Notes: generated from the sequence alone by a model not told the origin. A DNA stretch of 64,000 bases from Candidatus Omnitrophota bacterium (GCA_013285735.1 JABDGZ010000002.1:81621-145620), one strand, 5' to 3'; shown: positions 1,358 to 30,715, numbered from the stretch's first letter. Translations and numbers: made by a program.

Positions 1358-1384
1358 GTCATTCCCGCGAAAGCGGGAATCCAG
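1358..1384. repeat. 27-nt palindromic REP-like element, copy 1 (gtcattcccgcgaaagcgggaatccag)
   Basis: Perfect 8-bp stem (attcccgc/gcgggaat) with a gaaa loop. Identical to the copies at 20517..20543, 29769..29795 and 30687..30713, which are in reverse orientation. Confidence 0.9.
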
Positions 1385-1396
1385 TTCTTTCAAGTT

Positions 1397-1428
1397 CTAG
1401 ATCCCCGACAAAAGTATGCGAGGATGAC
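1397..1428. repeat. Degenerate REP-like copy in inverted orientation next to copy 1
   Basis: ctagatccccgacaaaagtatgcgaggatgac aligns to ctggattcccgctttcgcgggaatgac with substitutions and a longer loop. Confidence 0.45.
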
Positions 1429-1442
1429 AAGTTTAATTTAAG

Positions 1443-1480
1443 ATAAAAAACCCTCTGCGACCTTTTCGGGTCACAGAGGG
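1443..1480 (-). terminator. Rho-independent terminator downstream of csp
   Basis: On the minus strand, ccctctgtgaccc-gaaaa-gggtcgcagaggg (12-bp stem, one mismatch) is followed by TTTTTTAT, 25 nt after the csp stop. Confidence 0.8.
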
Positions 1481-1504
1481 TTTGGAAATACAAGAACTTG
1501 ATTC

Positions 1505-1705
1505 TTATATTTTTACAACGTTTTGAGCTTGTTCACCCTTAGGGCCGTTGACGATTTCGAACTCAACATCTTGTCCTTCGCCAAGTGATCTGTACCCTTC
1601 ACCTTGAATGGCAGAGTGATGCACAAATACGTCTTTGCCGTTTTCAGGAGTAATGAATCCAAAACCTTTTTGATCGTTGAACCACTTTACTTTACCTTTA
1701 ACCAT
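1505..1705 (-). CDS. csp: Cold-shock protein, CspA family (66 aa)
   Basis: [33 protein letters not shown] contains the RNP1 (KGFGFI) and RNP2 (VFVHH) motifs. Confidence 0.95.
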
Positions 1706-1827
1706 AATCTTTGAAACCTCCTTTTGATCTATACTTGAGTTCGTCTACATGACCCATAAAAAAACCGCCAGGCTTGTCCTACACCATGCGGTCTAAGATC
1801 ACAATCCTTGGAACTCGAACTCGTGTG

Positions 1828-1858
1828 ATAGTATGCACTACTTTAAGGCGTTTGTCAA
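1828..1858 (-). promoter_or_regulatory. Candidate sigma70 promoter for csp with a long 5' UTR
   Basis: The minus strand reads TTGACA (1853-1858), a 17-19 nt spacer, then CATACT/TACTAT (1828-1835). This implies a ~115-nt leader, as is common for cold-shock genes. Confidence 0.4.
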
Positions 1859-1898
1859 ATTTAATATTTGCCCTATTGCTTCGTCACCCAAACTCAAC

Positions 1899-3809
1899 TT
1901 AAGCTCCGTCGGTGTATTCCTTTCGTGAGGCTTCCAAAAATTCCCAGCGCTGATAGACTTCTAAAAGTTCTTCGGCCAATGTTTCTGAACGGGAATTAAC
2001 GCGGGCAATTTCCTTAGGGTCTTTATGATAAAAATTAATATCCGACAATAAGGCAAAAATTTCTTCCTGTTCAACTTCAAGCTTTTCAATCTTTGCAGGC
2101 AGACTTTCTAACTCGCGTTCTTCTTTAAAAGAAAGCTTTCTTAAATTTAAAGGTTTCAAAGGTTTTGACTTCTCTTCAACAGATGTAATTTGAGCTTTAG
2201 CACCGGGCGTCTTCACCTGACGCTGAGCCACCCAATCATCATAGCCGCCAGGAAATTCACCGATCTCGCCTTCGCCTTCCAAAACCATGGTGGATGTTGC
2301 CACATTGTTTAAAAATGAACGGTCGTGACTGACTATTATTAAAGTCCCGGAATACTCCATTAACAATTCTTCCAAAAGTTCCTGGGTTTCGATATCCAGA
2401 TCATTAGTCGGCTCATCCATAACCAAAAAATTAGATGGCTTGGTAAAAAGCCTGGCTAAAAATAAACGATTGCGTTCGCCACCGGAAAGGACCTTGACCG
2501 GTGTACGGGCACGGTCCGGCGTAAATAAAAAATCCTGCAAATAACCGATGATATGGCGAGGCCTGCCGTTAATGGTCACGGTGTCACCACCGGGGCAAAC
2601 ACTTTCAATAACGGTTTTTTCTTCATCAAGCTGCTGGCGCAATTGATCATAATAGGCAACTTCTAAATTGGTACCTAAACGCACCTTGCCTTTCTGAGGC
2701 TCCAGCTGCCCAAGTAAAATACGCAAAAGTGTGGTCTTGCCGCAGCCATTGGGGCCGATAACACCAATCTTGTCGCCGCGCATGATCTGTGTTGAAAAAT
2801 CTTTGATTAAACATCTCTCGCCATACGCAAATCCCAAATGAGACGCTTTGATAACCAAATGCCCTGAGGCTTCAGTTTCTTGGGCCTTCATCTTCACCTG
2901 ACCGATGAGATGACGCTGATTCATCTTCTCGATACGCAGGCGCTCCAGGGCTTTGACACGACCTTCGTTACGTGTCCGACGAGCTTTAACCCCTTTACGG
3001 ATCCAAACTTCTTCTTCCGCTAATTTGCGGTCAAAATCAATACGCTGGGCAGCTTCAACTTCAAGAGCTTGGGCTTTGCGTTCAAGAAAAATAGGGTAAG
3101 AACACGACCAGCTAAAAGTTTTACCGCGGTCAAGCTCCACAATGCGTGTCGCCAAATGCTGCATAAACATACGGTCGTGAGTTACAAAAAAAAGCGTACC
3201 TGGATAAGTCTTTAAAAATTCTTCCAGCCAATTGATGGTGTCAATATCCAGATGATTGGTAGGTTCATCCAAAAGCAGGACATCGGGCTTTAAAACCAAG
3301 GCCCTGGCTAAAAGCACACGGCGCTTTTGCCCGCCGGATAAAGTCTCAAAATCTGCCTCGCCATCAAGCTTCATTTGAGACAAGACAGTGCCTACCTCAG
3401 CATCAATGTCCCATCCGCCGCTGCGGTCTAATTCGGTTTGCAAATTATCTAATTGGCGCATTAATTCAGGAGTGTGCTCGGTATGCAGGCGATGGACCAC
3501 ATGATGGTAATCACTTAAAAGTTTGGCACGAGGCCCAAGCCCCGCAAAAACAATATCAAAGACAATGCCTTTAATATCATTGGGGACTTCTTGAGGCAAG
3601 TGTGTTACTTGAACACCCTTTTGATAAACAATCTCTCCATCGTCGATGGAAACTTGGCCTGCCATCACCTTCATCAAGGTCGTTTTACCAACCCCATTGC
3701 GGCCAAGCAAGGCAATGCGCTCACCAGGCTCCACCTGAAGACTTAAGTGATCAAACAAAAGTGGCCCACCAAAGGCCACCGATATTTCCTGCAAACTGAT
3801 AAGTGCCAT
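1899..3809 (-). CDS. uup: ABC-F family ATPase (Uup-like, 636 aa)
   Basis: Two ABC cassettes: Walker A GRNGVGKTT and GPNGCGKTT, signatures LSGGQKRR and LSGGERNR. There are no TM domains, and the tail is a charged C-terminal coiled coil. Confidence 0.85.
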   Translation of the reverse strand: MALISLQEISVAFGGPLLFDHLSLQVEPGERIALLGRNGVGKTTLMKVMAGQVSIDDGEIVYQKGVQVTHLPQEVPNDIKGIVFDIVFAGLGPRAKLLSDYHHVVHRLHTEHTPELMRQLDNLQTELDRSGGWDIDAEVGTVLSQMKLDGEADFETLSGGQKRRVLLARALVLKPDVLLLDEPTNHLDIDTINWLEEFLKTYPGTLFFVTHDRMFMQHLATRIVELDRGKTFSWSCSYPIFLERKAQALEVEAAQRIDFDRKLAEEEVWIRKGVKARRTRNEGRVKALERLRIEKMNQRHLIGQVKMKAQETEASGHLVIKASHLGFAYGERCLIKDFSTQIMRGDKIGVIGPNGCGKTTLLRILLGQLEPQKGKVRLGTNLEVAYYDQLRQQLDEEKTVIESVCPGGDTVTINGRPRHIIGYLQDFLFTPDRARTPVKVLSGGERNRLFLARLFTKPSNFLVMDEPTNDLDIETQELLEELLMEYSGTLIIVSHDRSFLNNVATSTMVLEGEGEIGEFPGGYDDWVAQRQVKTPGAKAQITSVEEKSKPLKPLNLRKLSFKEERELESLPAKIEKLEVEQEEIFALLSDINFYHKDPKEIARVNSRSETLAEELLEVYQRWEFLEASRKEYTDGA

Positions 3810-3844
3810 AAGTCGATTAGTGTACTACAGAGAATGGAAATTAG

Positions 3845-8128: not shown

Positions 8129-8208
8129 GATGAAGAAAGTTTAGCATATTTATATAAATAATGCCACTTGGAGGGGTTACTCATTTTTAATCAGAATTTA
8201 ACTAAAAT

Positions 8209-9141: not shown

Positions 9142-9149
9142 AATTATAA

Positions 9150-10154
9150 CTAATCTTTATAGCGCAAAAGCTGCCCGCGAGGTGGGTCACAGACCCAAAT
9201 ATTATTTTGATCATCGCTGACAACACAATGAGATTTTATATCCGCTTGGGCTTTGCCCAACAAAGACAATTGGCCTTGGGCTGATACACCTAAAACTGAA
9301 AGGGTGGCATTCTTGGAACTGGTAAAATACAAGTGTGCAAGCTTAGGGTTATAACTTATCACATCAGGCCCAGGATCAGTTGTTAAATTACTTATTTCTT
9401 TATTACCATGGTTTAAATCAAAAACCAAGGCACGGCCCTCAGCACAACTAACAAAAAGAAATCCTTTTTGTTCATCCAAAGCATCCCCACGCGATTTTGT
9501 ACATTCATTAGGCCACGTACCAATAACAATATGAGATTTTAGATCAATCATCGCGGCATTGGCTCCTAGATTCGTATAGGCATGCCCTCGGAGATGATCG
9601 ATCATCAAAGATTCTGGACCTTTGGGAACAGGAATAAGCACCGTCGCTTTCAGCATTGGATGTTCTCCACCTGTAAACCTAAAAACCTCGATCTGTTTAT
9701 TATGCGGCTCAGTGACCCAAACTTCATGATTGACACCGATATAGCGGACATAATCAGCATCTCCTGCTAAATCCGCGTTAGCCACTATTGATCCTGTTTT
9801 AAGATCCACCGCATCAAGTTCCTTGTTTCCATGATCCGCAACAAATATAAAAGCTTCCCCCTCATCCGCTGAGGAAATGCCAACCTCATGCCCCTTTTGC
9901 ATTTCAGCGCTCGAACTAAATCCACCGATACTCGACATTGCAAAATTCACCGGATCGATCAAATATAATTTTCCTGTGTGCCCCGCAGGGACTAACACTT
10001 TATGCAACTCTGAAGAATATACCAAATCATCAAAACCAATGCCCCCTTCACCACCAGGAATGGCAACAACCGTGGATTGTAAAGATGAGTCAGAAGATTG
10101 AGCGAAAACTGGATTAGCTATTGCTGTGAATATAAAAATTAAAAAGAATAACAT
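9150..10154 (-). CDS. Secreted beta-propeller repeat protein (334 aa), function unknown
   Basis: Signal peptide MLFFLIFIFTAIANPVFAQ. Repeated ~40-aa units with hydrophobic strands and D/G turns, resembling YVTN or lactonase-type propellers. Confidence 0.5.
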   Translation of the reverse strand: MLFFLIFIFTAIANPVFAQSSDSSLQSTVVAIPGGEGGIGFDDLVYSSELHKVLVPAGHTGKLYLIDPVNFAMSSIGGFSSSAEMQKGHEVGISSADEGEAFIFVADHGNKELDAVDLKTGSIVANADLAGDADYVRYIGVNHEVWVTEPHNKQIEVFRFTGGEHPMLKATVLIPVPKGPESLMIDHLRGHAYTNLGANAAMIDLKSHIVIGTWPNECTKSRGDALDEQKGFLFVSCAEGRALVFDLNHGNKEISNLTTDPGPDVISYNPKLAHLYFTSSKNATLSVLGVSAQGQLSLLGKAQADIKSHCVVSDDQNNIWVCDPPRGQLLRYKD

Positions 10155-10173
10155 ATTTATTCCCCCTCCCGAA

Positions 10174-10194
10174 CCCTCCCCACCAGGGGGAGGG
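10174..10194 (-). other. GC-rich hairpin between kdpE and the propeller gene, directly 5' of a G-rich Shine-Dalgarno
   Basis: The minus strand reads CCCTCCCC-CTGGT-GGGGAGGG, then TTC-GGGAGGGGGA-ATAAAT-ATG (start at 10154). No T tract follows. Confidence 0.6.
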
Positions 10195-10205
10195 AATATA
10201 ATCCT

Positions 10206-10892
10206 CTAAAGTAGGTTAAACCTATACCCGATACCAGGTTCATTGATGATACGCTTAGGGCTTGACGGATTGTCTTCGATTTTCTGACGCAGGTGATTTA
10301 AATAGACCCGTACAGAATTAGCTTTCTCTTCGTTTTCCGTTCCCCAAACTTCCCTTAAAATTTGCCGCATCGTTAAAACCCGCCCAGCATTTTTAATCAA
10401 CGATGTTAATAATCCGTATTCAATGGCAGTCAACTTAAGCGCTTTACTATGCAACAACACGGTACGGGTATTAAACTCAACATGTAATCCCGCATTATCA
10501 AAAACCTCATTTATAAGCCCTGGCGTCGTCTTTCGCCGTAACACGGCTGCGAGCCGTGCGGTCAACTCAGAAGCAGAAAATGGCTTGGTGATATAGTCGT
10601 CTGCGCCGCTTTCCAAACATTTGACCTTTATTTCTTCTTGCCCTCGGACAGAAACCATAATGACAGCCACGTCGCTAAATTCCCTAATGCGCACAAGCAC
10701 ATCAAAGCCTTCCATATCCGGCAAGCCCATGTCAAGCAGCACCGCTTGGGGTTTTTTGTAGACGAGCTCGGCTAATCCTTTTTCACCGCTAGCAGCACTA
10801 ACGACTTCATAGCCGGCATGAGTCAAGATCACTCCCAACATCTTCTGGATCTGCGGCTCATCATCAATGACAAGAACAATTCCCTTGGACAT
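10206..10892 (-). CDS. kdpE: OmpR-family response regulator KdpE
   Basis: REC domain (VLVIDDEPQI...LLDMGLPDMEG...KP) plus a winged-helix output domain (...VYLNHLRQKIE...GIGYRF). Located immediately downstream of kdpD. Confidence 0.9.
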   Translation of the reverse strand: MSKGIVLVIDDEPQIQKMLGVILTHAGYEVVSAASGEKGLAELVYKKPQAVLLDMGLPDMEGFDVLVRIREFSDVAVIMVSVRGQEEIKVKCLESGADDYITKPFSASELTARLAAVLRRKTTPGLINEVFDNAGLHVEFNTRTVLLHSKALKLTAIEYGLLTSLIKNAGRVLTMRQILREVWGTENEEKANSVRVYLNHLRQKIEDNPSSPKRIINEPGIGYRFNLL

Positions 10893-10900
10893 ATTAGAAT

Positions 10901-13543
10901 CTATTCTTTTTCTGCCATTGGTAAGGTTATCGTTACCATGAATCCTTTAGGAGACAAATTTTCTGCTTCCACATCACCTTCATTCAATTGCACAAAGCGA
11001 CGGGCGATGGAAAGACCTAAACCCAAACCGCCTTTTTTAGTTTTTGCTCCTCGATAAAATTTATCAAAGATCTTGGCCAACGTTTCTTTCGGGATACCTT
11101 CTCCCTGATCGATCACACTGATCCTGATTTTTTGATCCATGATACGGACATTAATATCGATCTCTTCGCCTTCAGGGCCATGCACTAAAGCGTTATGGAT
11201 AATATTCTTCAACGATTGTGTGATCATATAAAAATCCGCGTTCACGTACAACGGGCCTTGAGGACAATCCAGGTGAATGCGTTTTTCATCTCCCTGAGGA
11301 GCAACCTGCTTGAGTGCTTGGTTAATGATATCCTTGACTTCGCACCAGGCAAAATTAGGGCTCAAATTTCCTGTATCTAATTTTGTCAAATCCAGCACCG
11401 CGTCAACCCCGCTGGTCAAACGCAAACAAGCTAAACGGCATTCTTCCAAAAGCTCCATGGCATCTTTAGGCCATTGATGAAATAAAACCAAGGCATCCAG
11501 ATAACCAGAAATAATCGTCAACGGCGTCTTTAATTCATGCGATAAATTATCGAGCAAGGCACTCTGTAAATTTTGCGTGTCTTCCTTCATTTTGGCTTCA
11601 CGCGACATTTTTAACAATTGGTCTTTTTCTAACATCACTGTCATGAGCGCTGTGAATGATTCTAATAATGTCCGTTGAGCCAGATCCAAAGGTTTTTCAT
11701 CTGAAAGATTAATGACCAACACAGCCCTGACCTGTCCCGACGACATTAATGGCAAATACATTAAAGGCTGCTGCGACAAGGTATCAGAAAAACGTCCTGC
11801 GGCTTTCTTGTTAGCAACCACCCATTGGACCAAACCTTTTTGATTATCATTCATTTCTATAGAGTCCCCCAGAGGATTCTCAAAAAGGGGATGTTCATTT
11901 TCATCAACCATCAAAACACTGCTGTTGCCCGGCACCAGCAAATTGATTTGTTGGGTGGCTACCCGCATCGCTTGTGAAATATCCGTACTGAGAGCCAAGG
12001 CACGGGTTAATTCGTACAAGGATTCCGAACGCAACCGTTGTTTCTGTTCAACTTCTTTTTGACGACGTAATTTAGAAGTGACAAACCCCATCATCAGGGC
12101 AGTTATAAAAAACATCCCTAATAAGCCCATATCGTAACTACTTTTAAAACCAAAAGTATATTGCGGGGGTATAAATAAGAAATCCCATGCCAAAGCACTT
12201 AATGCTGCCAGCATAAAGGCAGCACCTCTTCCTAAAAAAACCCCGCTTAAAACAACAGTCAGCAAATACATCAGCCCTGTATGGTGGTATCCAGCCCATT
12301 GATACAGAAATAAGTTCACGATAGTAGCTATGGCGAACATCAAAATACTTAATCCATATTCATGGGGCCTGAGTTTTGATAAAGATTCTTTCGGCTTATC
12401 CGGAAAACTCTTATCTGCCGACGATATACGCACCATGTGCACATCTATCTGCCCGCTTAAAGATACTAATCGATCCGCCAATGTCGGAATTCCCAGGAAT
12501 CGCTGCCAATTTTTCTCAACAGATTTTCCAACAATGATTTGAGTGACATTTTCTTTATGCGCCACCGCAATAATCACCTGAGCTAAATCATCCCCCACCT
12601 GATGAATGATCTCTGCCCCCAGCTGACGGGCAAGGCTCAGATTCTTCATCAAACGTTCTTTATGTTCCTCGGAAAGTGATGCAGATCCTTCCACGTGCAG
12701 GGCGATCCATGAAGCATCCAGCATGCCTGCCCAGCGACGGGTCATACGGATCAACGACTCTGAAAATGGCGTTATCCCGACTGCAACTAAAATACGTTCA
12801 CCGCTTCGGGTTGGACCTGAAAGACCTTTAGCTAACATAAGAGACCGCAAATTCCTGTTCACATGGGCGGTGGTCAAACGCAGGGCCATCTCTCTTAAAG
12901 CTGTTAAATTTTCCGTTTTAAAAAAATTAGTAGTCGCGGCTTGGGCCTGGGCTGGGACGTACACCTTGCCTTCTGCGAGGCGTTGATGCAAGGCTTGGGG
13001 AGATAAATCAACCAAGGTTATTTCAGAGGCTTCATCAAGAATGGTATCAGGAACTGTTTCTCCGACGACCACACGGGTCACCGCTAAAATATCTTCCCGG
13101 CGGCTGTCCACATGCTGTACATTAAGGGTGGTGAAAACATCAATATCTGCAGAAAGTAATTCTAAAACATCCTGGTAACGTTTAGGATGCCGGCTGCCGG
13201 GGGCATTGGTATGGGCGAGTTCATCAACTAAAACTAACTGGGGACGGCGTTTGAGGATTTCATCAATATCCATTTCCTCAAGGGCTATGCCGCGATAATC
13301 AACTTTTTTAAGAGGAACCAACTCCAAGCCTTCCAACAGGGCTTGGGTTTCAGTACGGCCATGGGTGCAGACGACACCTACCAACACCCTAAAGCCTTCG
13401 TTCTGACGCTGGCGTGCCTCCTGGAGCATGGCATAGGTCTTACCAACACCAGGTGCCATACCAAAAAAAATCTTCAGCTTGCCGCGGTGATTGTCTTCGG
13501 CCTTTACTCTTGCGAGAATTGCATCCGGATCGGGTCTTTCCAT
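10901..13543 (-). CDS. kdpD: Sensor histidine kinase KdpD (880 aa)
   Basis: N-terminal KdpD domain with GMAPGVGKTY, a USP-like region, four TM helices, a GAF-like region, an H-box (LSHELKTPLT) and an HATPase domain (GLGLSIARRF). Confidence 0.92.
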   Translation of the reverse strand: MERPDPDAILARVKAEDNHRGKLKIFFGMAPGVGKTYAMLQEARQRQNEGFRVLVGVVCTHGRTETQALLEGLELVPLKKVDYRGIALEEMDIDEILKRRPQLVLVDELAHTNAPGSRHPKRYQDVLELLSADIDVFTTLNVQHVDSRREDILAVTRVVVGETVPDTILDEASEITLVDLSPQALHQRLAEGKVYVPAQAQAATTNFFKTENLTALREMALRLTTAHVNRNLRSLMLAKGLSGPTRSGERILVAVGITPFSESLIRMTRRWAGMLDASWIALHVEGSASLSEEHKERLMKNLSLARQLGAEIIHQVGDDLAQVIIAVAHKENVTQIIVGKSVEKNWQRFLGIPTLADRLVSLSGQIDVHMVRISSADKSFPDKPKESLSKLRPHEYGLSILMFAIATIVNLFLYQWAGYHHTGLMYLLTVVLSGVFLGRGAAFMLAALSALAWDFLFIPPQYTFGFKSSYDMGLLGMFFITALMMGFVTSKLRRQKEVEQKQRLRSESLYELTRALALSTDISQAMRVATQQINLLVPGNSSVLMVDENEHPLFENPLGDSIEMNDNQKGLVQWVVANKKAAGRFSDTLSQQPLMYLPLMSSGQVRAVLVINLSDEKPLDLAQRTLLESFTALMTVMLEKDQLLKMSREAKMKEDTQNLQSALLDNLSHELKTPLTIISGYLDALVLFHQWPKDAMELLEECRLACLRLTSGVDAVLDLTKLDTGNLSPNFAWCEVKDIINQALKQVAPQGDEKRIHLDCPQGPLYVNADFYMITQSLKNIIHNALVHGPEGEEIDINVRIMDQKIRISVIDQGEGIPKETLAKIFDKFYRGAKTKKGGLGLGLSIARRFVQLNEGDVEAENLSPKGFMVTITLPMAEKE

Positions 13544-13578
13544 GCCTTCTATCTTACTTCATTTGAAGACATCTGCCA

Positions 13579-14157
13579 TTATTTTTTATATTGATCTAAG
13601 GCGAGGTTAACTTGCAAAACATTCACTACTGGTTCTCCAAGAAATCCTAAAAATCGACCTTGGGTGTTTTGATTGACAATTTGTTTGACCACATCCGTTG
13701 TTAATCCACGCACACGTGCAACACGGACTAGTTGATACTGTGCGGCTGCTAAGCTGATATGCGGGTCTAGACCACTGCCTGAGGAAGTTACTAAATCTAC
13801 AGGGATTGGATCATTGTTACCTGGATCAGCAGCTTTTAAAGCAGCAACTCTCCCTTTCACCTCATCTAATAAAGCAGGATTTGAAGGGCCTAAATTTGAA
13901 CCTGAAGAAGCTGAAGCATTGTAAGCAGGACTCGTCGCTGAAATTCTGCTCCAGAAGTATTTCGGATCATCGAAGTTTTGGCCGATCAATGATGAACCTA
14001 AAATCTTGCCATCTCCGGAAACGATCAAGCTGCCTTCAGCCTGCTTATGGAATAATGTCTGAGCAACGCCGGTCACAAAAAGCGGGTAAAGAACTCCGGT
14101 GAGTGCCGATAATAAAACAAACGAAACGATGGCGGGTCTGATTTGTGCGAGTAACAT
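13579..14157 (-). CDS. kdpC: Potassium-transporting ATPase subunit KdpC
   Basis: 192 aa with a single N-terminal TM helix. Motifs ...[25 protein letters not shown]...[13 protein letters not shown].... Confidence 0.92.
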
Positions 14158-14169
14158 TGTTATCTCCTT

Positions 14170-17990: not shown

Positions 17991-18079
17991 TAGAATATCT
18001 CCGGTTTAAGCAAAGCTATTAAAAGATAAACAAACAAGACAAATGCAGTAATCCCACCGATCCAATAAATGGCCAACAT
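17990..18079 (-). CDS. kdpF: KdpF small subunit (29 aa), not in the ORF track
   Basis: Manual translation gives MLAIYWIGGITAFVLFVYLLIALLKPEIF. The SD is AGGAAGGAG 6 nt upstream. Its TAA overlaps the kdpA ATG (TAATG). Confidence 0.8.
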   Translation of the reverse strand: MLAIYWIGGITAFVLFVYLLIALLKPEIF

Positions 18080-18091
18080 AAATACTCCTTC

Positions 18092-18175
18092 CTATACTTT
18101 TGAACACAAAACAATAAAAGCCCAAGAAATAAGCCCAAATAAAATTGTGAGACCGATATACATAAGATCCAACAT
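18092..18175 (-). CDS. Second small hydrophobic peptide (27 aa) upstream of kdpF
   Basis: Manual translation gives MLDLMYIGLTILFGLISWAFIVLCSKV, preceded by GAAAGGGGAG-ATATTT-ATG. It ends 12 nt before the kdpF start. Confidence 0.45.
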   Translation of the reverse strand: MLDLMYIGLTILFGLISWAFIVLCSKV

Positions 18176-18209
18176 AAATATCTCCCCTTTCAGTTACACA
18201 CTAAAAAAT

Positions 18210-18238: not shown

Positions 18239-18254
18239 TTAAAAGAAGGCTTTA

Positions 18255-18308: not shown

Positions 18309-18320
18309 GATAAAATTACA

Positions 18321-21221
18321 TTAAGGACTTGCTTGCAACTGGGAAAGTAAAGGTGTTTGGCTTGCGGGTATGATGGAAAGGATATCAGGCTCCAAACCTG
18401 CAATATTACTTAGCTGGGCTAAATCTTGTTTAGCCAATGGTAGTACTACACCTCTGCCATCACGCTTGATCTGCATGTTCAAATTAGCAGCATTTAAATC
18501 GATACCACCGAGGGGTGTTTTATCAGGAGCAATTTCCCTGGCTGCCACTGGTTGAATTTTGTGCCCAAAAGAAGGGGTATTATTTCTCCAGGCATTAGGT
18601 ACTCCAAAAGCTTGCATTGCTAAGACCAGGGATGCAATGGACATTGTAAATCTTCCATCAATTGTTATTGTAAGTGCCTCGTCGGAGAGAAGAACATCCA
18701 ATCTATTGATCAAATCTACAGGATCTTCACGTTCAGCTGCAACAGGGGCACCCAAGACTTCACTTACCCTTTCTATCGTTGTTTCGAGATCTTCAGTTAA
18801 CTTACGCTGTACCTCGAAACTTACTGAATCACGCGAACGAAAAATCTTAATATCTGTTAAGACTCTTGTTTCGGCCCCTCCTAGGGTTTCGTGAGCTTTG
18901 TTTACCCTAATAAAAATATCGCTATTAGGAATTCTTTTTTCATAAGATTTACGTACCCACATTAAATCTTCCTCTGGCTCTGGATTATTATCTGCAAGTC
19001 TAACTAATGCTTTAACACCCGAAGCCGTACCCAAAACCTTAGCACCTAAAAACATATTTGCTGTACCATTACTATAAAGCTTAAAAGATTCTACCTGCCC
19101 TTTGACAGCAATTGTCAATGTATCCTGGTCATGACCTATATACCGCCCATTAATTTCTCCAATTTCATCATCTTTACCTATTCTTAAAAAAGTTACTTGA
19201 ATATCTTTATCGATAAGATTTTCAGATTTATCAATTATTTGATCAGCTTTCAATGTTTGACGAACAGTATTCACTGCATTTTGAAATACTACAGCAGGTT
19301 CTTCACCACCAGCAAATTTCAAATTCTTCTCATATTCATACTTTATCCATGATGCTACTGATACGGGATGTATATAAGATCCGGTAGTTATTTGATATTG
19401 AATAAGACTTTCTCCCCACTTAGAAGTGATTTTTGTTGAACCCCCACTAAAATCTTCAGGATCATAAAATTTACTTACTGATACAGGAACTCCACCTATC
19501 TTTCTTCCACCTTGCATCACCCTTCCTTCTATTTTTCGAAGTCCTACGTCTGGATTAACACGGCCAACAACTGCAAATAAAGGCTCCTCATCAGCTGATT
19601 GAACCTCTACAGTCGGTTGAACCGGCTTTCTAAATCGCGCCGCCAAAGCTTCCTTAATAAGCATATCACCAATATTCGGTCTTAGTCGGGTAGGATTCAA
19701 TGCTCTATTGATAACAATCTCTTCAAAAAACTCACTTACTATTTGAGGATCTTGCATCATGTAGATTAAATTTACTTCTTTTCCTCCATTCAGGGACATT
19801 GTATAAGGCCCAATGAGTTCACGTTTTTTATGATCAGTGCCAAAAATTTTGTCATCAACTCCTATTCCAGAAAGTTCACGCAATAATTCCACAACGATTT
19901 CTTTGATTTTTAGTCTTTTCTCGCTGTTATTAATTAAATCCTTCAAATGAACATTCCCAGGAGTACTAAGGAATTGATTCACTTGTCCTTCTGCTTCTGC
20001 TTCGTTTATCATCGCCACATCTGGAGTTGTTTCTCCCATAGCCACTAGAGCGACATCTTCATATGTAATACCATCTTCCAACATGCCGCTATCTCTAGGG
20101 GGAAGATTTCTTATTTCTTTCATCGCAGGATGGCCAAGAACTCTTGCAGATATATCTGGATCATATCCGTCCACTAATCCACCAGAAAAATATTTCCTAG
20201 GGATTGCTTCATTAGTGTATTTATCTATATCTTCCTTAATATAGTTAAACACACCTTTTTTATACGCCCTCAGATAACGCTGATAAATGGCTTCATTATT
20301 TTGGGGATTTTGATCAATACCTTTAATCTTAGTCTTATCTGCGTAAATTTGGCCCAAGATAGATTGCTTTAGCGTCCGCTTAAACCATGCTGCCAAAAGC
20401 ATGCCGCTATAGACTTGACGTAAAAGAGCAAAATTCTTGGCCGTGTTGACTTCGCGTTCAAGGGCGGGTAGGACGATTTCTCGGACGACTTGGGAACCGA
20501 GGGTGTTGATGTTGTTCTGGATTCCCGCTTTCGCGGGAATGACAGATGTTATACCTGAATGTTTTTGTAAAGACAGGTAATCTTCTTCTAACATCACTTT
20601 TAAATGGTTTTTTAACACATAAGCTGTATTGCCTTTTTCATAGATGAGAGCGTCATCCGGGATGATCCAGACTTTGTTGAAGGTATTGACCGGGATATTG
20701 GTTGTCCCGTACTGCTGCTGAGCTTTCGCATATACTTTATTCCAGAACTTCTTGCCTAAATCTTCTTCCGGATATATTAGGGAAGCAGTGATTTGTTTGA
20801 GGATATAATCCTGTGACAGCAAATCACGGCCCATCAGGGTTTTACCAAAATCATCCTTGATAATGCGGTCCTTTTCATAAGGAGATAAATTAACCCACTG
20901 GTCTTCATCCGGGATTGCTAAAGAGGCCAAAAAATATTTGATGAGTTTTTTATATTCTACTTTTTTCTCTTCATTATTTAAAAACTTATCTCCTCTGTGA
21001 ATGATAAAATCAAACATTAATGGATTTTCAGGATGGATAGTAATTCCTTTTAATTCTGCTGGAGTAAAATCAGGACTTAAATTTAAGCGCACACCGGGCT
21101 TTGGCATCCATGGCATCTGGCTTTCAAAAGCCAATTGGGCGTAAACCGGAGCTTGAAAGGATGAGCCTATAAAGGACACGAGTACAGTTAACGCTATAAT
21201 ATCGCGTAATTGTTTGCGCAT
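18321..21221 (-). CDS. Large Sec-signal protein P2 (966 aa from the preferred start): shared N-module, unknown core, GGIDL C-module
   Basis: The track ORF is 18321..21254. I prefer the ATG at 21219-21221 because MRKQLRDIIALTVLVSFIGSSFQAPVYAQ parallels the P3 start MLKQLRISIVLTVLVTFIGSS. The N-module runs to PRKYFSGG (~20180). The last 63 aa (18321..18512) begin LGGIDLNAANLNMQIKRDG. It contains an in-frame REP copy (VIPAKAGIQ). Confidence 0.8.
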   Translation of the reverse strand: MRKQLRDIIALTVLVSFIGSSFQAPVYAQLAFESQMPWMPKPGVRLNLSPDFTPAELKGITIHPENPLMFDFIIHRGDKFLNNEEKKVEYKKLIKYFLASLAIPDEDQWVNLSPYEKDRIIKDDFGKTLMGRDLLSQDYILKQITASLIYPEEDLGKKFWNKVYAKAQQQYGTTNIPVNTFNKVWIIPDDALIYEKGNTAYVLKNHLKVMLEEDYLSLQKHSGITSVIPAKAGIQNNINTLGSQVVREIVLPALEREVNTAKNFALLRQVYSGMLLAAWFKRTLKQSILGQIYADKTKIKGIDQNPQNNEAIYQRYLRAYKKGVFNYIKEDIDKYTNEAIPRKYFSGGLVDGYDPDISARVLGHPAMKEIRNLPPRDSGMLEDGITYEDVALVAMGETTPDVAMINEAEAEGQVNQFLSTPGNVHLKDLINNSEKRLKIKEIVVELLRELSGIGVDDKIFGTDHKKRELIGPYTMSLNGGKEVNLIYMMQDPQIVSEFFEEIVINRALNPTRLRPNIGDMLIKEALAARFRKPVQPTVEVQSADEEPLFAVVGRVNPDVGLRKIEGRVMQGGRKIGGVPVSVSKFYDPEDFSGGSTKITSKWGESLIQYQITTGSYIHPVSVASWIKYEYEKNLKFAGGEEPAVVFQNAVNTVRQTLKADQIIDKSENLIDKDIQVTFLRIGKDDEIGEINGRYIGHDQDTLTIAVKGQVESFKLYSNGTANMFLGAKVLGTASGVKALVRLADNNPEPEEDLMWVRKSYEKRIPNSDIFIRVNKAHETLGGAETRVLTDIKIFRSRDSVSFEVQRKLTEDLETTIERVSEVLGAPVAAEREDPVDLINRLDVLLSDEALTITIDGRFTMSIASLVLAMQAFGVPNAWRNNTPSFGHKIQPVAAREIAPDKTPLGGIDLNAANLNMQIKRDGRGVVLPLAKQDLAQLSNIAGLEPDILSIIPASQTPLLSQLQASP
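20517..20543. repeat. REP-like element copy 2, in frame inside P2
   Basis: ctggattcccgctttcgcgggaatgac; the minus strand is translated as V-I-P-A-K-A-G-I-Q (aa 238-246 of the track ORF). Confidence 0.9.
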
Positions 21222-21386
21222 AGATTTATTTGTATCTAGAAAATATGGGGGCATATTCCCATTCCACTAAAAAATTCATTTCCTAGATAAAGAGTGCCAT
21301 ATAATTTATTGCTTGTCAAGGAAGGCAGGGGTTAAATTATGTAAGACTATTATTTCCAATATGTTATGAAATAAATAATTTAATAT

Positions 21387-23906
21387 TTATTCATACCCAT
21401 ACTTTTTGATAAACCATACCTTCATGGCCTGAACAGACCATAAATAGAATCCTACAATAGCGATGAGGAATAAAAAGAACGAGGCAGGCGGCATAACGAA
21501 TTTAAAATAAGCCCCAAGCGGTGTATACGGAAGGACCAGGGCTACCGATATAATGTATATGGATGTGAATATTAAAAATGGACTTGGCCAACTTTCGACA
21601 AATGGTATTTTACCAGTACGGATAATATGAATAACCAGAAGCTGCGTACACATGGATTCTAAAAACCAACACGTGGCAAACAAGGCAGGCCCGGCATGAA
21701 AGATAAAAAGCAGCACACCAAAGGTTAAATAATCAAAAACAGAGCTAAGCGGTCCAAAATACATCATGAATTTTTTAATATAGTCAACATTCCATGACCT
21801 TGATTTTAAAAGATACTCTTCATCCACTTCATCAGAAGGGATCGCAACCTGGGAGATGTCATAGAGAAAATTATTCAAAATAATTTGTATCGGATACATA
21901 GGCAGAAACGGCAAAAGAAAACTCGCCCCTGTCATACTGAACATATTACCAAAATTCGAACTCGCCCCCATTTTAATATATTTGAATATATTACCAAACA
22001 CCCTTCTTCCTTCCAAAACACCATCACGTAACACCATTAAATTCTTCTGCAAAAGAATAATATCTGCGGATTCTTTGGCGATATCCACCGCATTATTAAC
22101 GGAAATCCCTACGTCCGCTGCTTTCAAGGCTGGTGCGTCATTAATACCATCCCCCAAAAAGCCCACCGTATGACCATTGCGGTGCAGGGCATGGATGACA
22201 CGCTCTTTTTGTAAAGGCGAAAGCCTGGCAAAAACCGTGGTTGTCTTCACTAAATCTTTAAGTTGGTCGTCACTAATTTTTTCTAACTGAACCCCGGTCA
22301 AAAGCCCTTTAATATCAAGCCCCACATCGCTGCAAATTTTCTTGGCAACTAGATCATTGTCCCCGGTAAGCACCTTAAGTTCGATACCGAGTTTCCTTAA
22401 TACTTCGATCGTTTTTTTAGCTGTTGGCTTTGGAGGATCAAGAAAGGCTATATAACCTTTTAAAACAAGGTCTTGTTCATCGTCCTTGGAATAAACTTCC
22501 TTATTAACACCCATGTCTTTATAAGCAACAGCCAAAACCCTGAAACCATCCGCACTTAAAGTATCATATTCTTCCTTTAAATCCGTCAATACAATTTGAT
22601 CTAAATCTTCCAACTCCCCATCCAATTCATACTTTTTACACCGCTTTAGAATTTCTTCAGGAGCACCCTTAGCGATAATCTTATGCTTCCCCTCCATGTC
22701 CACTACCACTGACATGATCCTTCGGGAGAAATCAAAAGGCATTTCATCAACTTTTTTATATTGCTTAACGACTAATTTTTCATATTTTAAAACCGCTTTA
22801 TCTAAAATATTCTTAAGGCCTGTTTGATAATAACTATTCAGATACGCCAATTTTAAAACACCTTGATCTTCTTTTCTGACCACATCACAATATTTCTCCA
22901 AAACGATCCTGTCTAAAGTCAGGGTCCCTGTTTTATCCGTGCAAAGCACATCCATCGCGCCAAAATTCTGGATGGAATTTAAACGTTTGACGATGACGTC
23001 TTTTTTAGACATCGCAATCGCCCCTTTGGACAAATTGATCGTCACCAGCATGGGAAGCATTTCAGGGGTCAAGCCGATGGCCACGGCTAACGAGAACAAA
23101 AGTGCTTCCATCAAATTACCCTTAGTAAAATAATTGATAGCACAAATAACAATGACCAAGATCACCATGGCACGGATCATAAGCCAAACAAATTTATTAA
23201 TACCACGATCAAAACTCGTCGGCTGGTTGATGGATGAAAGCCGTTTTGAAATTTCACCAAATTCGGTGGCCAAACCTGTTTTAATAACTACTGCTAAAGC
23301 GGTACCGCTCACCACACTTGACCCCATAAACGCAATGCTATTGGTCAGGGGTGTTTTTTCCACCGGCATGGATTCACCAGTCAACGCTGACTGATTAATA
23401 AACAAATCTTTGGCTTGAATGATCCTGATATCTGCAGGAATCATATCTCCGGCAAATAAATCTACGATATCGCCAGGTACGACCTCTCTAATAGAAATTT
23501 CTTTAGGCTTGCCGTTACGGTATACTGTCGCGGTGGTGTGCACCATTTCGCTTAATTTATCTGCTTCCTGACCCGCGCGATATTCCTGAAAAAAACCAAG
23601 AGCAACGCTCATGAAAGCCATGACACCAATAATAGAACCGCTGACCGCGTCCCCAGTAAGAAAACTGACAGCTGCTATAACAAGAAGTAAAACAACCAGT
23701 GGATGAAAAAACTTGAGGATAAACTGAAGGACCAAGGTTCTTTTCTGCTTTCTGGCAGCTTCATTGAACCCATATTCATCGAGGCGTTTTTGAGCTTCAG
23801 CTTCAGAAAGTCCGCTAGAGTTGGTCTGAAATTTCTCAAAAAGGATCTCTTTGGAACACGTTTTATAATCAAAATCAAATACTTGAGGCTTTTGTTTATT
23901 GTTCAT
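21387..23906 (-). CDS. mgtA: Magnesium-translocating P-type ATPase (MgtA-like, 839 aa)
   Basis: DKTGTLT, TGDN and GDGINDAPALKAADVGISV motifs with 10-TM topology. The N-terminal region has MgtA-like features. Confidence 0.85.
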   Translation of the reverse strand: MNNKQKPQVFDFDYKTCSKEILFEKFQTNSSGLSEAEAQKRLDEYGFNEAARKQKRTLVLQFILKFFHPLVVLLLVIAAVSFLTGDAVSGSIIGVMAFMSVALGFFQEYRAGQEADKLSEMVHTTATVYRNGKPKEISIREVVPGDIVDLFAGDMIPADIRIIQAKDLFINQSALTGESMPVEKTPLTNSIAFMGSSVVSGTALAVVIKTGLATEFGEISKRLSSINQPTSFDRGINKFVWLMIRAMVILVIVICAINYFTKGNLMEALLFSLAVAIGLTPEMLPMLVTINLSKGAIAMSKKDVIVKRLNSIQNFGAMDVLCTDKTGTLTLDRIVLEKYCDVVRKEDQGVLKLAYLNSYYQTGLKNILDKAVLKYEKLVVKQYKKVDEMPFDFSRRIMSVVVDMEGKHKIIAKGAPEEILKRCKKYELDGELEDLDQIVLTDLKEEYDTLSADGFRVLAVAYKDMGVNKEVYSKDDEQDLVLKGYIAFLDPPKPTAKKTIEVLRKLGIELKVLTGDNDLVAKKICSDVGLDIKGLLTGVQLEKISDDQLKDLVKTTTVFARLSPLQKERVIHALHRNGHTVGFLGDGINDAPALKAADVGISVNNAVDIAKESADIILLQKNLMVLRDGVLEGRRVFGNIFKYIKMGASSNFGNMFSMTGASFLLPFLPMYPIQIILNNFLYDISQVAIPSDEVDEEYLLKSRSWNVDYIKKFMMYFGPLSSVFDYLTFGVLLFIFHAGPALFATCWFLESMCTQLLVIHIIRTGKIPFVESWPSPFLIFTSIYIISVALVLPYTPLGAYFKFVMPPASFFLFLIAIVGFYLWSVQAMKVWFIKKYGYE

Positions 23907-25770: not shown

Positions 25771-25775
25771 ATTAT

Positions 25776-27182: not shown

Positions 27183-27292
27183 GAACGCACCTTCCTTAAA
27201 ATTAAAAAATAGGCCTTAAAAACAGCTTTAACATAAGAATTTGGCATTATAGCATAAATAAATAAACTGTCATTGAATTAAACTACTTGGCC

Positions 27293-28168
27293 TTACTTAG
27301 AACGTGAAAGTGATTTGCGCATCTGCAGTAACTCTTTTTGACGTTGCGGGTCTAATTTAGGGTAAGACATTTTTAAACTTTTAAGGGTATCTACGATGAT
27401 CTGGGAGATGACCAGGTGCGCGTTTTCTTTATCATCAGCAGGGACAACATACCAGGGTGATTTAGATGTGCTGGTGGCACTTAAGCAAGCCTCATAGGCT
27501 TTCATATAATCTTTCCAAAACTTCCTCTCCTGAATGTCGGCAAGGCTGATTTTCCAGTTTTTTGAAGGATCATCCATGCGTTTAAGAAATCGCTGACGCT
27601 GCTCTTCTTTGGAAAGGTGCAGATAAAATTTAATGACCCTGGTCCCATTATAACTAAGATGTTTTTCTAAATCCCTGATAGAGCGATAGCGCTCTTCCCA
27701 AATAGTCTTCGGACTTAAAAGATCCTCTGGTATCTGCTCTCCCTGAAGAATTTCAGGATGCACCCGGGCAATCAAGACTTCTTCGTAATAGGAACGATTG
27801 AATATACCTATCTGTCCACGTTGAGGTAGATCACGGGTTGTACGCCATAAAAAATCATGATCTAATTCTTCAGGGCTTGGATGTTTAAAACTAAAAACCT
27901 GACAGCCTTGAGGATTAACACCAGACATCACATGCTTGATAGCACCATCTTTACCAGCAGCATCCATGGCCTGAAAAATCAACAATAGCGCATAACGGTT
28001 ATCCGCGTAAAGGATATTTTGCAAACTGCTTAATTCCTCAATATGCCGCTCTAAAATTTCTTTGTATTGATCATTAGACTTGTAAAATGATTTGATAGTT
28101 GTTGGACGTTTTTTAAGTTCAACATTACGTCCTTCCATCACCTGAAAGTCTTTAACATTGATCTTCAT
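27293..28168 (-). CDS. ppk2: Polyphosphate kinase 2 family protein
   Basis: [16 protein letters not shown] (Walker A-like), FNRSYYE and DDKENAHL motifs. This is the single-domain 291-aa form. Confidence 0.88.
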
Positions 28169-28176
28169 TTTTTCCT

Positions 28177-28797
28177 TTATTGCTGCTGGGATTGTGAATT
28201 GGTAGTAGTTACGTCTTTATCCGGTGTCGTAAGCGGATCTGGCACGTTGTTAACAGGCGGCGGAGGAATCATTTTTTGAATTTCAGCCTTCAACGAATTT
28301 ATATTTTCTTTAAGTTCAGGAATATTTAAAGCAGTTAACCCATTCTCAAAATTCTTTGTTTCTGCCTGGGAATCATCCATTTTTTTCTCAAGTTCTGCTA
28401 AAACAGAAACGTAGTCTTTCTGCCATCCTTTCATGTCCTGCTTGATGGCATCTGCTTCCGCTTTAATATCTATTAAGGAAGTTTGAACTGCTTTATTCTC
28501 ATTTTCTACCTGTTGCCTTTTTGCTACCTCCTGAAGAAAAGCATCATTTTGAGCAGACAACTGGTCTTTCTGGTCTTTGATCTGCTGCTCGGAATCTTCC
28601 AAATCTTTGCCAATACGTTCTATTTGATCTTGTTGGTATTTAAATTTATTACTGTTGAATTCTGCCTCTACATCAAGCTTATCCTTCATCGAACTCAATT
28701 CATTCTTTTGTTTCTCACAAAAATTATAAAACAGCACATCAAAGGCTATAAAAATAGCGACTATGATTAAAATAATGACTTTTAAAATGTTATTCAT
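28177..28797 (-). CDS. Membrane-anchored coiled-coil protein, function unknown
   Basis: N-terminal TM helix ([20 protein letters not shown]), a ~140-aa K/E/Q-rich heptad region and a Pro/Thr/Gln-rich tail. Confidence 0.5.
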
Positions 28798-28817
28798 AAG
28801 TATGATCCTTCTCGTGT

Positions 28818-28847
28818 GTCATTCCCGAATGCTTCTTGGGGGAATGC
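28818..28847. repeat. Divergent REP-like copy
   Basis: gtcattcccgaatgcttcttgggggaatgc shares the gtcattccc...gggaatg arms with the 27-nt element but has a different loop. Confidence 0.45.
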
Positions 28848-28924
28848 ATAATACAGTCAAGTATACCCTATAAAAAACAAATTTGCCATTTTTCAAGCCA
28901 AGGCAAAAGTGTTACTATATCAGC

Positions 28925-29116
28925 ATGTCTTTAGAACAATTTGAGAGTTTTTCCTGCCCTTATTGCGGAGAAGCTAATGAGCTTTTGGTTGATGTCAGCG
29001 GTGGGGCGCATCAGGAGTTTGTGGTGGATTGCGAGGTATGCTGTGCGCCTATTGTCATACGCTTGATAATACGTGGAGAGGATATTTCTATGGATGTGCA
29101 GAGGGAAAACGAATAA
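28925..29116 (+). CDS. CPXCG-motif zinc-ribbon protein (63 aa)
   Basis: MSLEQFESFSCPYCGE...VVDCEVCCAPI has paired Cys motifs. The track ORF starts at a TTG at 28883, but the ATG at 28925 gives the usual family length. Confidence 0.7.
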   Translation: MSLEQFESFSCPYCGEANELLVDVSGGAHQEFVVDCEVCCAPIVIRLIIRGEDISMDVQRENE

Positions 29117-30715
29117 TTACCAATCCACCGGGAAGTAGTCTTTTAAAAATTTACCGCACCAATGTGTTCCTGTATTAATACCGTGAAAAAATGGGTCACA
29201 AACCCGCGCCGCTCCATCTACGATGTCCAAAGGCGGCTGAAAATCGTGATTCTCCTGTTTACGGGTGGATAAGGCAATAGGATCCTCGTCGGTGACCCAG
29301 CCGGTATCAACAGCATTCATATAAATACCGTATTTTACCAAATCACGGGCTGAAGTATGCGTCAGCATATTCAAGGCTGCTTTAGCCATATTAGTATGCG
29401 GGTGTTTGTCAGTTTTGGTAAAACGATGGAATTTTCCTTCCATGGCAGAGACGTTCACGATATGTTTCTGTCCGGTATTTTCCCTTTTCATCATGTGCAC
29501 AAGTTTATTACACAAAACAAACGGGGCAATAGCATTAACTAATTGCAACTCGATCATCTCTGCGGTGGGGATATCCCCTATCCCTAAACGCCAGCTGTTC
29601 ATTTCCCTCATATCCACTTGCTGTAAATCAGCATCTAGTTTTCCTTGAGGAAAAACTTTGGGAACTTCTAAGGTATGGTCATGGGTATATGGGATTTGAG
29701 AAAGTTTAGCAGAAGCGCTGAGGCCAATGCCTGGCATGGTTGTATTCCAAGCCAAATCGACTCCTTCTCTGGATTCCCGCTTTCGCGGGAATGACAATAA
29801 TTCATTGGAGGGCATTAATTGTGTTTTACAAGTTTCAAATGATTGAAGGAAAGTCTGCGCATTAGCTGGTAATTCTTTAATTGAAAGTGCTTCGTTCGCT
29901 AAAAGATGTGCATAAAAACCCGGCGGACGTCGGACGGTTTGCGCGGCATTATTAATTAATAAATCTAAACGGTGATATTTCTTTTCAACATAATTGCAAA
30001 AAAGCTCCACACTCGGCGTATGCCGCAGGTCTAATCCATAGATATCCAATCGATTGGCCCATTCTTTAAAATCAGCTTCTCGACTGTAACGAAGGGCTGA
30101 ATCATTGGGAAAGCGGGTGGTCGCAATAACATGGGCACCGGCGCGTAACATCATCAGTGACACCTGATAACCAATCTTTAAACGCGATCCAGTGATTAAA
30201 GCTACTTGGCCCTCAATAGATGCTGTCTGAAAACGCTTAGCATAATTAAATTCCGCACAGGCAGGACACATCGCATCATAAAAAAAATGCACCTTGGTGA
30301 ATTCACTCTTACAGATATAACACGCTCGAGGATTAATCAATTCTTTTTCTAAAAAAGCTGTTTGCTTGTCTGCATGCAGGATGGCCTTAGGGGCTATAAA
30401 TACAGCTGCCTCACGTGCCGAGCGGATACCCGTTGTTTTTCGAAGCTTTCGTTCATGATCATCGATCCGCTGTTTTTTAAGACGGATCCTGTCTTTTTTT
30501 CTTTTGCGGATTTCATCACGATCAGGACGGGAAATTTCGCCTGCAGCCTTGAGGATCGCTATCCTTTGTTCTTTAGATAAATGGGCTAATTCAACGCTGT
30601 TATGAACCAAGTCATCAAGCAGATTGATGCAGCGTTGTATTTCTTCTATTGAATATTTAGGGTCTACGATTTTATTCATGGATAAACTGGATTCCCGCTT
30701 TCGCGGGAATGACAT
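29117..30715 (-). CDS. SDR-family oxidoreductase with an N-terminal basic/zinc-ribbon extension (start 30715 or 30679)
   Basis: Rossmann motif [18 protein letters not shown], and a catalytic Y/K region ([12 protein letters not shown]). The N-terminal extension carries CYICK...CPAC. One REP copy is in frame at 29769..29795 (SFPRKRESR) and another lies at the 5' end. Confidence 0.75.
29769..29795. repeat. REP-like element copy 3, in frame inside the SDR gene
   Basis: ctggattcccgctttcgcgggaatgac; the minus strand is read as (L)SFPRKRES(R), a frame shifted by one relative to the P2 copy. Confidence 0.9.
30687..30713. repeat. REP-like element copy 4 at the 5' end of the SDR gene
   Basis: A perfect copy lying between the two candidate start codons (30715 and 30679). 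Confidence 0.9.

Follow-up and report, generated by a model that had tools for sequence, protein, structure and literature searches.

The 64,000 nt stretch of a Candidatus Omnitrophota genome analyzed here (GCA_013285735.1 JABDGZ010000002.1:81621-145620; hereafter the window) contains a short palindromic repeat that stands between genes at two places and is translated inside two others, each time in a different reading frame. This raises the question of which kind of element can sit within coding sequences and leave them readable. We consider it highly probable that the repeat is a 28 nt member of the class known as CGTC-1 REP (repetitive extragenic palindrome), dRS3 or NTS (with its degenerate motif SRM), and that it exists in Omnitrophota as solitary and dimeric units which are non-autonomous and whose positions are filtered by selection.

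The 27-mer GTCATTCCCGCGAAAGCGGGAATCCAG is found in four exact copies, at 1358-1384 on the plus strand and at 20517-20543, 29769-29795 and 30687-30713 on the minus strand; the number expected by chance, according to dinucleotide-preserving shuffles, is 0. Since a further T precedes the 27-mer in all four copies, we take the 28-mer TGTCATTCCCGCGAAAGCGGGAATCCAG as the conserved unit. It is composed of TGTC, ATTCCCGC, GAAA, GCGGGAAT and CCA(G), i.e., an 8 bp stem closed by a GAAA loop, and its fold as single-stranded DNA (ssDNA) has an energy of −9.0 kcal/mol with z = −5.8 relative to shuffled sequences. Of the six frames of the 27-mer, only antisense frame 3 is closed, by a terminal TGA; the other five are open. 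Altogether, the window, which has a G+C content of about 41% and almost all of its genes on the minus strand, holds four exact and two decayed units, one dimer among them. In these respects, the first-pass annotation of the window was accurate: the four perfect copies, the 8 bp stem with its GAAA loop, the absence of stops from the frames in use and the two degenerate relatives are all real.

Two exact units are located outside of genes. The first (1357-1384, plus strand) is intergenic, downstream of a csp gene and 15 nt upstream of the true start of a nitroreductase gene. It forms a convergent dimer with one of the decayed units, a degenerate inverted partner of B type on the minus strand (1397-1428, TGTCATCCTCGCATACTTTTGTCGGGGATCTAG), which consists of GTCATCCTCG, an 11 nt loop and CGGGGATCTAG and is homologous to the B unit of a dimer in a related contig (L128), there within a gene for a short-chain dehydrogenase/reductase (SDR). 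The second intergenic unit (30687-30714, minus strand) occupies the spacer between the stop of a type I dehydroquinase gene (30724) and the start of the window's own SDR gene (30679). The other decayed unit (28817-28848, plus strand, TGTCATTCCCGAATGCTTCTTGGGGGAATGCA) is intergenic as well, just upstream of the start of the open reading frame (ORF) 28177-28797, and retains a TGTC head and an ATTCCC/GGGAAT stem, with a 13 nt loop and a GCA tail. The remaining two exact units are in frame inside minus-strand genes, at 20517-20544 in a gene that we call P2, where sense frame 1 gives (S)VIPAKAGIQ, and at 29769-29796 in the SDR gene, where sense frame 2 gives SFPRKRESR. Translation reproduces both peptides as originally reported, and also LDSRFRGND for the ORF that runs antisense through the first unit into the nitroreductase gene.

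The unit corresponds closely to a repeat of Neisseria. Chenal et al. (2025; PMC11893778) described NTS as a 28 nt sequence, CGTCATTCCCGCGMAVGCGGGAATCYRG, and additionally defined a degenerate Ssn-related motif (SRM). SsnA, a GIY-YIG protein of approx. 94 amino acids, binds the hairpin as ssDNA only and on a single strand only, and cuts a few nucleotides upstream (5′) of it; cleavage needs three bases 5′ of the stem and binding needs the C 3′ of the stem, while RNA is not bound by Ssn. According to the same study, ssn genes occur across bacterial phyla, many of them with the motif on both sides. The window unit agrees with the NTS consensus at 27 of 28 positions, which lies within the limit of at most one mismatch used by these authors for an NTS match, and the sole difference is a T in place of C at position 1 in all four copies. 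Applied as a regular expression, the SRM pattern (HGTCWYN(0-2)YYVSBRHN(0-5)WNVSBRGN(0-2)RNCYNB) finds exactly the four unit sites in the window and nothing else, and all four keep the GTC that precedes the stem and the C that follows it.

A second description leads to the same class. In the survey of Di Nocera, De Gregorio and Rocco (2013; PMC3733652), CGTC-1 REPs have a CGTC head or one of its variants TGTC and CCTC, an 8 bp stem beginning with AT, a 4 nt loop and a CCA tail, all of which are present in the window unit, its head being the accepted variant TGTC. The survey equates CGTC-1 with dRS3 in Neisseria and RPE-6 in Rickettsia conorii, and reports that copies often form dimers and are mostly intergenic, that in-frame intragenic copies are documented, and that false N-termini are frequent. 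The dRS3 motif ATTCCC-N8-GGGAAT is found as ATTCCCGCGAAAGCGGGAAT in all four window copies; this is a motif held in common, not membership in the Neisseria repeat population. Judged by sequence, the unit thus belongs to the known CGTC-1 / dRS3 / NTS class and is not a new kind of element. In-frame copies of the class are already published, too (2002, 2013), the earlier report being that of Ogata et al. (2002) on Rickettsia palindromic elements (RPEs), as cited in PMC3733652. Rfam has no family for the unit, and no match was obtained in the window with all families at gathering thresholds.

The likeness to NTS and SsnA comprises a nearly identical sequence, a common hairpin and the retention of GTC and the 3′ C as critical bases, as well as cassettes of inverted unit, nuclease gene and inverted unit which we recovered with the exact 27-mer, also from Omnitrophota (see below). 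The window differs in its head base, T instead of the C of the Neisseria consensus, and in having no ssn gene; neither intragenic translated copies nor Omnitrophota are discussed in PMC11893778. The role shown in Neisseria is to limit transformation. With CGTC-1 REPs, the unit shares head, stem, loop and tail, some in-frame copies and the artifacts in start calls, and probably also the dispersal as singles and dimers at mostly intergenic positions, but the 2013 survey listed five phyla without Omnitrophota and named no cognate protein. RPE-6, whose equivalence to the unit is taken from PMC3733652, is likewise a palindromic repeat in frame in genes that stay intact; the best-known element, RPE-1, is however 100–150 bp long and unrelated in sequence, and the host in the present case belongs to a candidate phylum that is free-living or episymbiotic. 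A classification as REP- or MITE-like, as initially suggested, holds insofar as the unit is REP-like palindromic DNA. It is not a REP of the RAYT-associated type (discussed below), and we reject a miniature inverted-repeat transposable element (MITE), considering that MITEs span 70–300 bp, with terminal inverted repeats that match an insertion sequence and a target-site duplication, whereas the unit has 28 nt and the dimer about 70 nt, and that comparisons of filled and empty sites showed neither a target-site duplication nor clean boundaries.

To what extent the two genes existed without the element is seen in their relatives. P2 (18321-21254, minus strand) belongs to an Omnitrophota-specific family, and its insert follows …EEDYLSLQKH in a loop of variable length. 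The gene has two paralogs, P1 (3845-8128) and P3 (46886-53200), all three being on the minus strand and encoding 1427 (P1), 977 (P2) and 2104 (P3) amino acids. They share a conserved N-terminal region of approx. 400 amino acids with a signal-peptide-like start, whereas their C-terminal parts are unrelated. No Pfam match was obtained for any of them, and named homologs come exclusively from Omnitrophota, except for two records that are likely mis-binned. P1 lacks 11 residues exactly at the insert site of P2. Most members of the family have no element, the closest homologs among them, and peptides resembling VIPAKAGI in the same loop and frame are present in 8 of 120 homologs; one homolog contains a forward plus inverted dimer (VMPAKAGIQNIESRLRGND). 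As in RPE-bearing genes, the palindrome in P2 is in frame, the gene is otherwise intact, and most homologs are free of the insert.

At the level of DNA, the P2 element and that of homolog P0125 are identical at 26 of 27 nt, while the coding flanks reach 67% (P = 0.0004); with P0122, 24 of 27 nt are identical next to flanks of 67% (P = 0.009). Third codon positions within the element match in 8 of 8 (P0125) and 6 of 8 cases (P0122), compared with 45% in the flanks. Furthermore, the only stem difference of P0122 is a compensatory pair, ATTCCGGC/GCCGGAAT, in which both changes are synonymous. As synonymous sites are conserved far above the flanks and the stem pair is compensatory, we conclude that the P2 element is conserved at the DNA level. 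The condition under which the first-pass annotation would have been refuted, codons kept as protein and not as nucleotides, thus does not hold.

Other repeat-like peptides occur in the same loop after …EEDYLSLQKH of several homologs (P0134, P0135, P0143, P0147, P0153, P0191, P0237), for example …RSQATKQSLDLKEIASSPLVPHN, …GQPGDMF… and …LPLTPSLTKEG…PPLFYKEGVRG, and further short repeat families may be translated there. Beside P2, synteny is broken (window 21254-23906 versus L121 16792-21542): in relatives, a phosphofructokinase gene precedes the cation ATPase gene and a Na+/H+ exchanger follows it, whereas in the window the phosphofructokinase gene is absent and P2 is followed by the kdp operon.

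In the SDR gene (29117-30679, minus strand, true start MNKIVDP…), the insert occupies a variable loop that separates two halves matching adh_short. The closest orthologs (P0001-P0005; 85–88% protein identity) have a conserved loop of 16 amino acids without the element, and the element peptide appears in 9 of 120 listed homologs. The names borne by SDR homologs, like those of P2 homologs, assign the window to Candidatus Omnitrophota. In P0006, the 28-mer is identical and an inverted B unit comes after it, so that the two form an in-frame dimer encoding 22 residues; in P0008 (L129), the hairpin loop of the unit is enlarged by 24 nt of inserted DNA, and frame 1 is used. Measured from a common anchor, the copies in the window, P0006 and P0008 are located at 28, 13 and 8 nt, respectively. 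In a neighbor-joining tree with the loop masked, insert-bearing genes are scattered among insert-free sisters, although this tree has short internal branches and weak resolution; the insert-free loop of 16 amino acids is the commonest state across it. The structurally distinct loop states imply at least three events; the number of gains may have been much larger, or a single gain may have been spread by recombination. Here, too, an in-frame palindrome resides in an otherwise intact gene and is missing from its close orthologs, as is known of RPEs. The proposal that the element inserts into coding loops without breaking the frame is hence well borne out, given that SDR orthologs as well as P2 paralogs and homologs lack the insert. 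Alignment with these insert-free genes, which had been suggested for defining the insertion sites, does yield empty sites, but exact insertion boundaries could not be defined.

Where a unit stands 5′ of a gene, it affects the predicted start. The nitroreductase ORF call, 716-1393 on the minus strand, continues through the antisense NTS as LDSRFRGND. Solved nitroreductases in PDB align residue ~23 of this ORF with their own residue ~9, and we infer from them that translation starts at M18, an ATG at 1342, which gives a true gene of 716-1342. Similarly, the SDR ORF call spans 29117-30715, with the real start at 30679, because SDR orthologs begin with MNKI…; the unit at 30687 adds a spurious extension of 12 residues to the N-terminus. 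Orthologous starts and nitroreductase structures thereby confirm the early suspicion that the copies at 1358 and 30687 lie just 5′ of starts and create spurious extensions. In three relatives (L121, L128, L129), the dehydroquinase stop abuts the SDR start without a spacer, while L127, the closest relative, carries a variant unit between these two genes, in the position of the 30687 copy. In L127 (ENA contig_197042_np1212), the SMC, dehydroquinase and DEAD helicase genes are each split into two or three ORFs, which looks like frameshift errors of a long-read assembly. The differences of its unit, a 5 nt loop and a CCAT tail, should be read with caution, given these apparent errors.

Beyond the window, at least 120 genome stretches contain the exact 27-mer, and they represent some 15 or more groups at the level of phyla (one genome per species, groups taken from record titles), including Patescibacteria, Chloroflexota, Planctomycetota, Acidobacteriota, Nitrospirota, several proteobacterial classes, one Omnitrophota metagenome-assembled genome (MAG) and the genome of a Rickettsia endosymbiont (L033), which has the 27-mer as a convergent pair. 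The G+C content of these stretches ranges from 31 to 73%. In addition, 68 stretches of IMG/VR contain the 27-mer. Outside the 27-mer, position −1 is the only conserved site, with C in 56% and T in 34% of 137 oriented copies; at sampled loci with a G+C content below 48%, 16 of 23 copies have T as their head base. Only about 14% of the copies at the 120 listed loci lie 80 or more codons inside an open frame, compared to 55% of random positions, so that the element is mostly, but not exclusively, intergenic. All five open frames are used among the listed copies. Several units contain extra DNA (9 to >60 nt) exactly in the hairpin loop, with both stem arms intact (L318 9950-10000 with 26 nt, L129 P0008 with 24 nt, L040 6517-6549, P0033, P0042 and P0047); indels or secondary insertions may occur preferentially in the loop.

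The gene which accompanies the 27-mer encodes a small GIY-YIG nuclease. GIY-YIG ORFs adjoining the motif served as Ssn references here and were assigned by Pfam PF01541 and size, the published Ssn being of cd10448 type and about 95 amino acids long. Among the 120 listed genome loci, two GIY-YIG ORFs were present (L040, L041), both flanked by units and with Pfam GIY-YIG E-values of about 3e-14. In a viral contig (L145; IMG/VR 3300012964_000516), a 373 bp cassette is built of NTS, a gene for a 97 amino acid GIY-YIG protein and an inverted NTS, with the exact 27-mer at both termini. The cassette is located in the region 2948-3377 of the contig, between the large terminase and portal genes, where selfish endonucleases typically insert; another inverted unit stands upstream of it. 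In metagenomes, the 27-mer precedes a GIY…YIG coding pattern by 10–40 nt in at least 120 stretches. At least 110 ORFs of this kind are complete, 80 of 110 being 90–99 amino acids long, and G+C extends from 26 to 70%. An inverted unit follows within 200 nt downstream in at least 54 of them, as the exact 27-mer in 23.

A tblastn comparison with all proteins of the window recognized no Omnitrophota contig among the 120 listed metagenomic NTS-ssn loci. Ten low-G+C Ssn proteins, looked up by cluster, returned Aminicenantes names only, and the GIY-YIG proteins received no informative name from NCBIfam. A profile search, on the other hand, detected two Omnitrophota GIY-YIG proteins with TGTC-headed flanking units. 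In CP070780.1 (1.43 Mb), a gene for 97 amino acids (P0263) has a loop-expanded unit at its start, TGTCATTCCCGC and GCGGGAATC with 26 nt between them, and an inverted unit downstream, TGTCATTCCCGCGAAAGCGGGAATCCAT, which is 27/28 identical to the window unit. The MAG contig JAHILR010000006.1 shows the same layout of unit, GIY-YIG gene and inverted unit. The link between the 27-mer and a GIY-YIG gene is, consequently, present in Omnitrophota as well. In the latter contig (L319, 5900-8126), the unit-flanked gene is directly upstream of a gene for a large serine recombinase, and the region, with TIR-domain, primase-polymerase-like and HTH_17 proteins, looks like an integrated element. Within the window, a GIY…YIG regular expression hit one region, 18009-18200, which we dismissed as a chance match in the kdpF/kdpA leader region.

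From these observations, the following course of events can be proposed. As published for the class, the strand YGTC-ATTCCCGC-GAAA-GCGGGAAT-CCAG folds as an ssDNA hairpin, to which the single-domain GIY-YIG protein Ssn (~95 amino acids) binds in a strand- and sequence-specific manner, nicking a few nucleotides 5′ of it; the autonomous form is the cassette, with the nuclease gene between two inverted units. For the window, solitary units and convergent dimers would be non-autonomous derivatives dispersed through the genome. Ssn or another agent would copy them, and the source genome presumably encodes Ssn. Selection would then filter the surviving sites, most of which are intergenic. Within a gene, a unit would survive only if its length is a multiple of three, if it is read in a stop-free frame (one of five) and if the loop that receives it is variable and tolerant, and it is this filter that would account for VIPAKAGIQ in P2 and SFPRKRESR in the SDR, both probably translated into stable protein. 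Copies 5′ of a start would merely lengthen naive ORF calls.

Several points weigh against this proposal. What PMC11893778 demonstrates for Ssn is cleavage and an effect on transformation, whereas an IS-like origin is only hypothesized there. A profile of 97 Ssn sequences detected no GIY-YIG gene, either in the window or in some 110 kb of related Omnitrophota contigs (best E-value about 1). Alignments of filled and empty sites revealed neither clean boundaries nor a target-site duplication, loops and spacers being too diverged. An AlphaFold2 model of the SDR, based on an alignment of 27 sequences, has a mean pLDDT of 53 and values below 50 in the insert region, and does not demonstrate a surface loop. 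Finally, the first base of the unit is T, where the Neisseria consensus has C.

The units could instead be mainly passive target sites of a site-specific recombinase or an insertion sequence (IS), rather than copies of a spreading element. Indeed, dRS3 of Neisseria is a documented target of phage and IS, being the integration site of the Nf filamentous phage via a Piv/IS110-type enzyme (PMC11893778, PMC3733652), and the loop insertions mentioned above (24 nt in P0008, 26 nt in L318, longer in P0033 and P0042) indicate that the hairpin can receive insertions. Yet the window contains neither a recombinase gene nor one of IS110, and target sites give no account of identical 28-mers at unrelated places or in loops that are empty in close orthologs. 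Such a role is also compatible with the proposed dispersal and not an alternative to it; as the chief explanation, we regard it as improbable.

Little probability is likewise assigned to the possibility that the intergenic copies are chiefly RNA hairpins, i.e., stabilizers of mRNA, attenuators or modulators of translation whose function maintains the sequence. Such roles are reported for REPs generally (PMC3733652), three of the four copies are in the sense orientation of co-directional genes, and the copy at 30687 is in an operon spacer where the genes of relatives abut. However, this spacer copy is missing in close relatives, no Rfam family matches at gathering thresholds, and Ssn does not bind RNA (PMC11893778). 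A function in RNA cannot explain either why the 27-mer is kept across phyla and from 26 to 73% G+C, or its linkage to a gene for a DNA nuclease.

Even less likely, in our estimation very improbable, is a classical REP/REPIN mobilized by RAYT, a Y1 transposase of the IS200/IS605 type. The general anatomy fits, since both kinds have short hairpins, convergent dimers, mostly intergenic positions and a single-copy cognate gene flanked by inverted units. In contrast to the GTAG head of RAYT-associated REPs, however, the head here is YGTC, and the enzyme of those REPs is an HUH Y1 transposase and not a GIY-YIG protein. No RAYT has been tied to the class: PMC3733652 found CGTC repeats on the flanks of neither a RAYT gene nor that of any other transposase, and the gene flanked by the exact 27-mer, at least 110 times, is that of a GIY-YIG nuclease. 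Pfam scans of the small and the remaining large ORFs of the window detected no GIY-YIG, RAYT, IS110, Y1 or other transposase domain. The search for a RAYT gene advised in the first-pass annotation, which is negative for the window, was therefore the wrong test, because PMC3733652 found no RAYT and PMC11893778 showed a GIY-YIG cognate. The last alternative, that the nine codons are an ancestral peptide selected for its function in both proteins and conserved at the protein level, can draw on the 8 of 120 P2-family homologs with such peptides in the same loop and frame, but is, on the DNA comparisons of the P2 element and the SDR loop, already refuted: most homologs including the closest lack the peptide, the same DNA is read in another frame in the SDR and lies twice outside genes, the insert-free SDR loop prevails across the tree, and it is the nucleotides that are conserved far above the coding flanks, down to the compensatory stem difference of P0122.

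If we return to the unit as a dispersed, non-autonomous member of the CGTC-1 / dRS3 / NTS class, its main use lies in annotation. It explains the two spurious N-terminal extensions in the window, and also odd peptides which recur in hypothetical proteins of many phyla. Omnitrophota, with in-frame copies, are added to the host range of NTS/Ssn, and the loops of SDR and P2 offer concrete pairs of filled and empty sites for studying how CGTC/NTS repeats are copied. We also considered, as a rather doubtful though conceivable extension, that Ssn/NTS is currently active in Omnitrophota and keeps reshaping the same surface loops in proteins of the host. In SDR and the P2 family, the loops carry single units, dimers of A and B units, units in differing frames, and DNA nested inside the hairpin loop. 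If these represented many independent hits and not one old, recombining insertion, they would point to a target preference, possibly for existing hairpins or transiently single-stranded DNA, and the element would be a regular source of protein-loop variation in Omnitrophota.

Some further features of the window are worth mentioning. Two short matches within paralogs of P2, GTCATCCCC at 52454-52462 in P3 and GTCATTCCC at 5780-5788 in P1, were rejected as chance half-sites that do not constitute an element. Another G+C-rich palindrome, ATTCCCTCCCCCTGGTGGGGAGGGTTCGGGAGGGGGAAT (10159-10197, minus strand), with an inner 8 bp stem of CCCTCCCC/GGGGAGGG, occurs once in the window, in a 51 nt spacer between a response-regulator gene (10206-10892) and the ORF 9150-10154. 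The region 10206-18079 comprises a complete kdpFABC operon together with the kdpD/kdpE two-component system, including a KdpF ORF of 29 amino acids (17990-18079). At the other end of the window, a type IV secretion cluster (55163-63684) adjoins the 2104 amino acid paralog P3 and encodes VirB3-like, VirB4/TrbE, VirB6/TrbL, VirB8, VirB9/CagX and VirB10/TrbI proteins and a VirB11-type ATPase.

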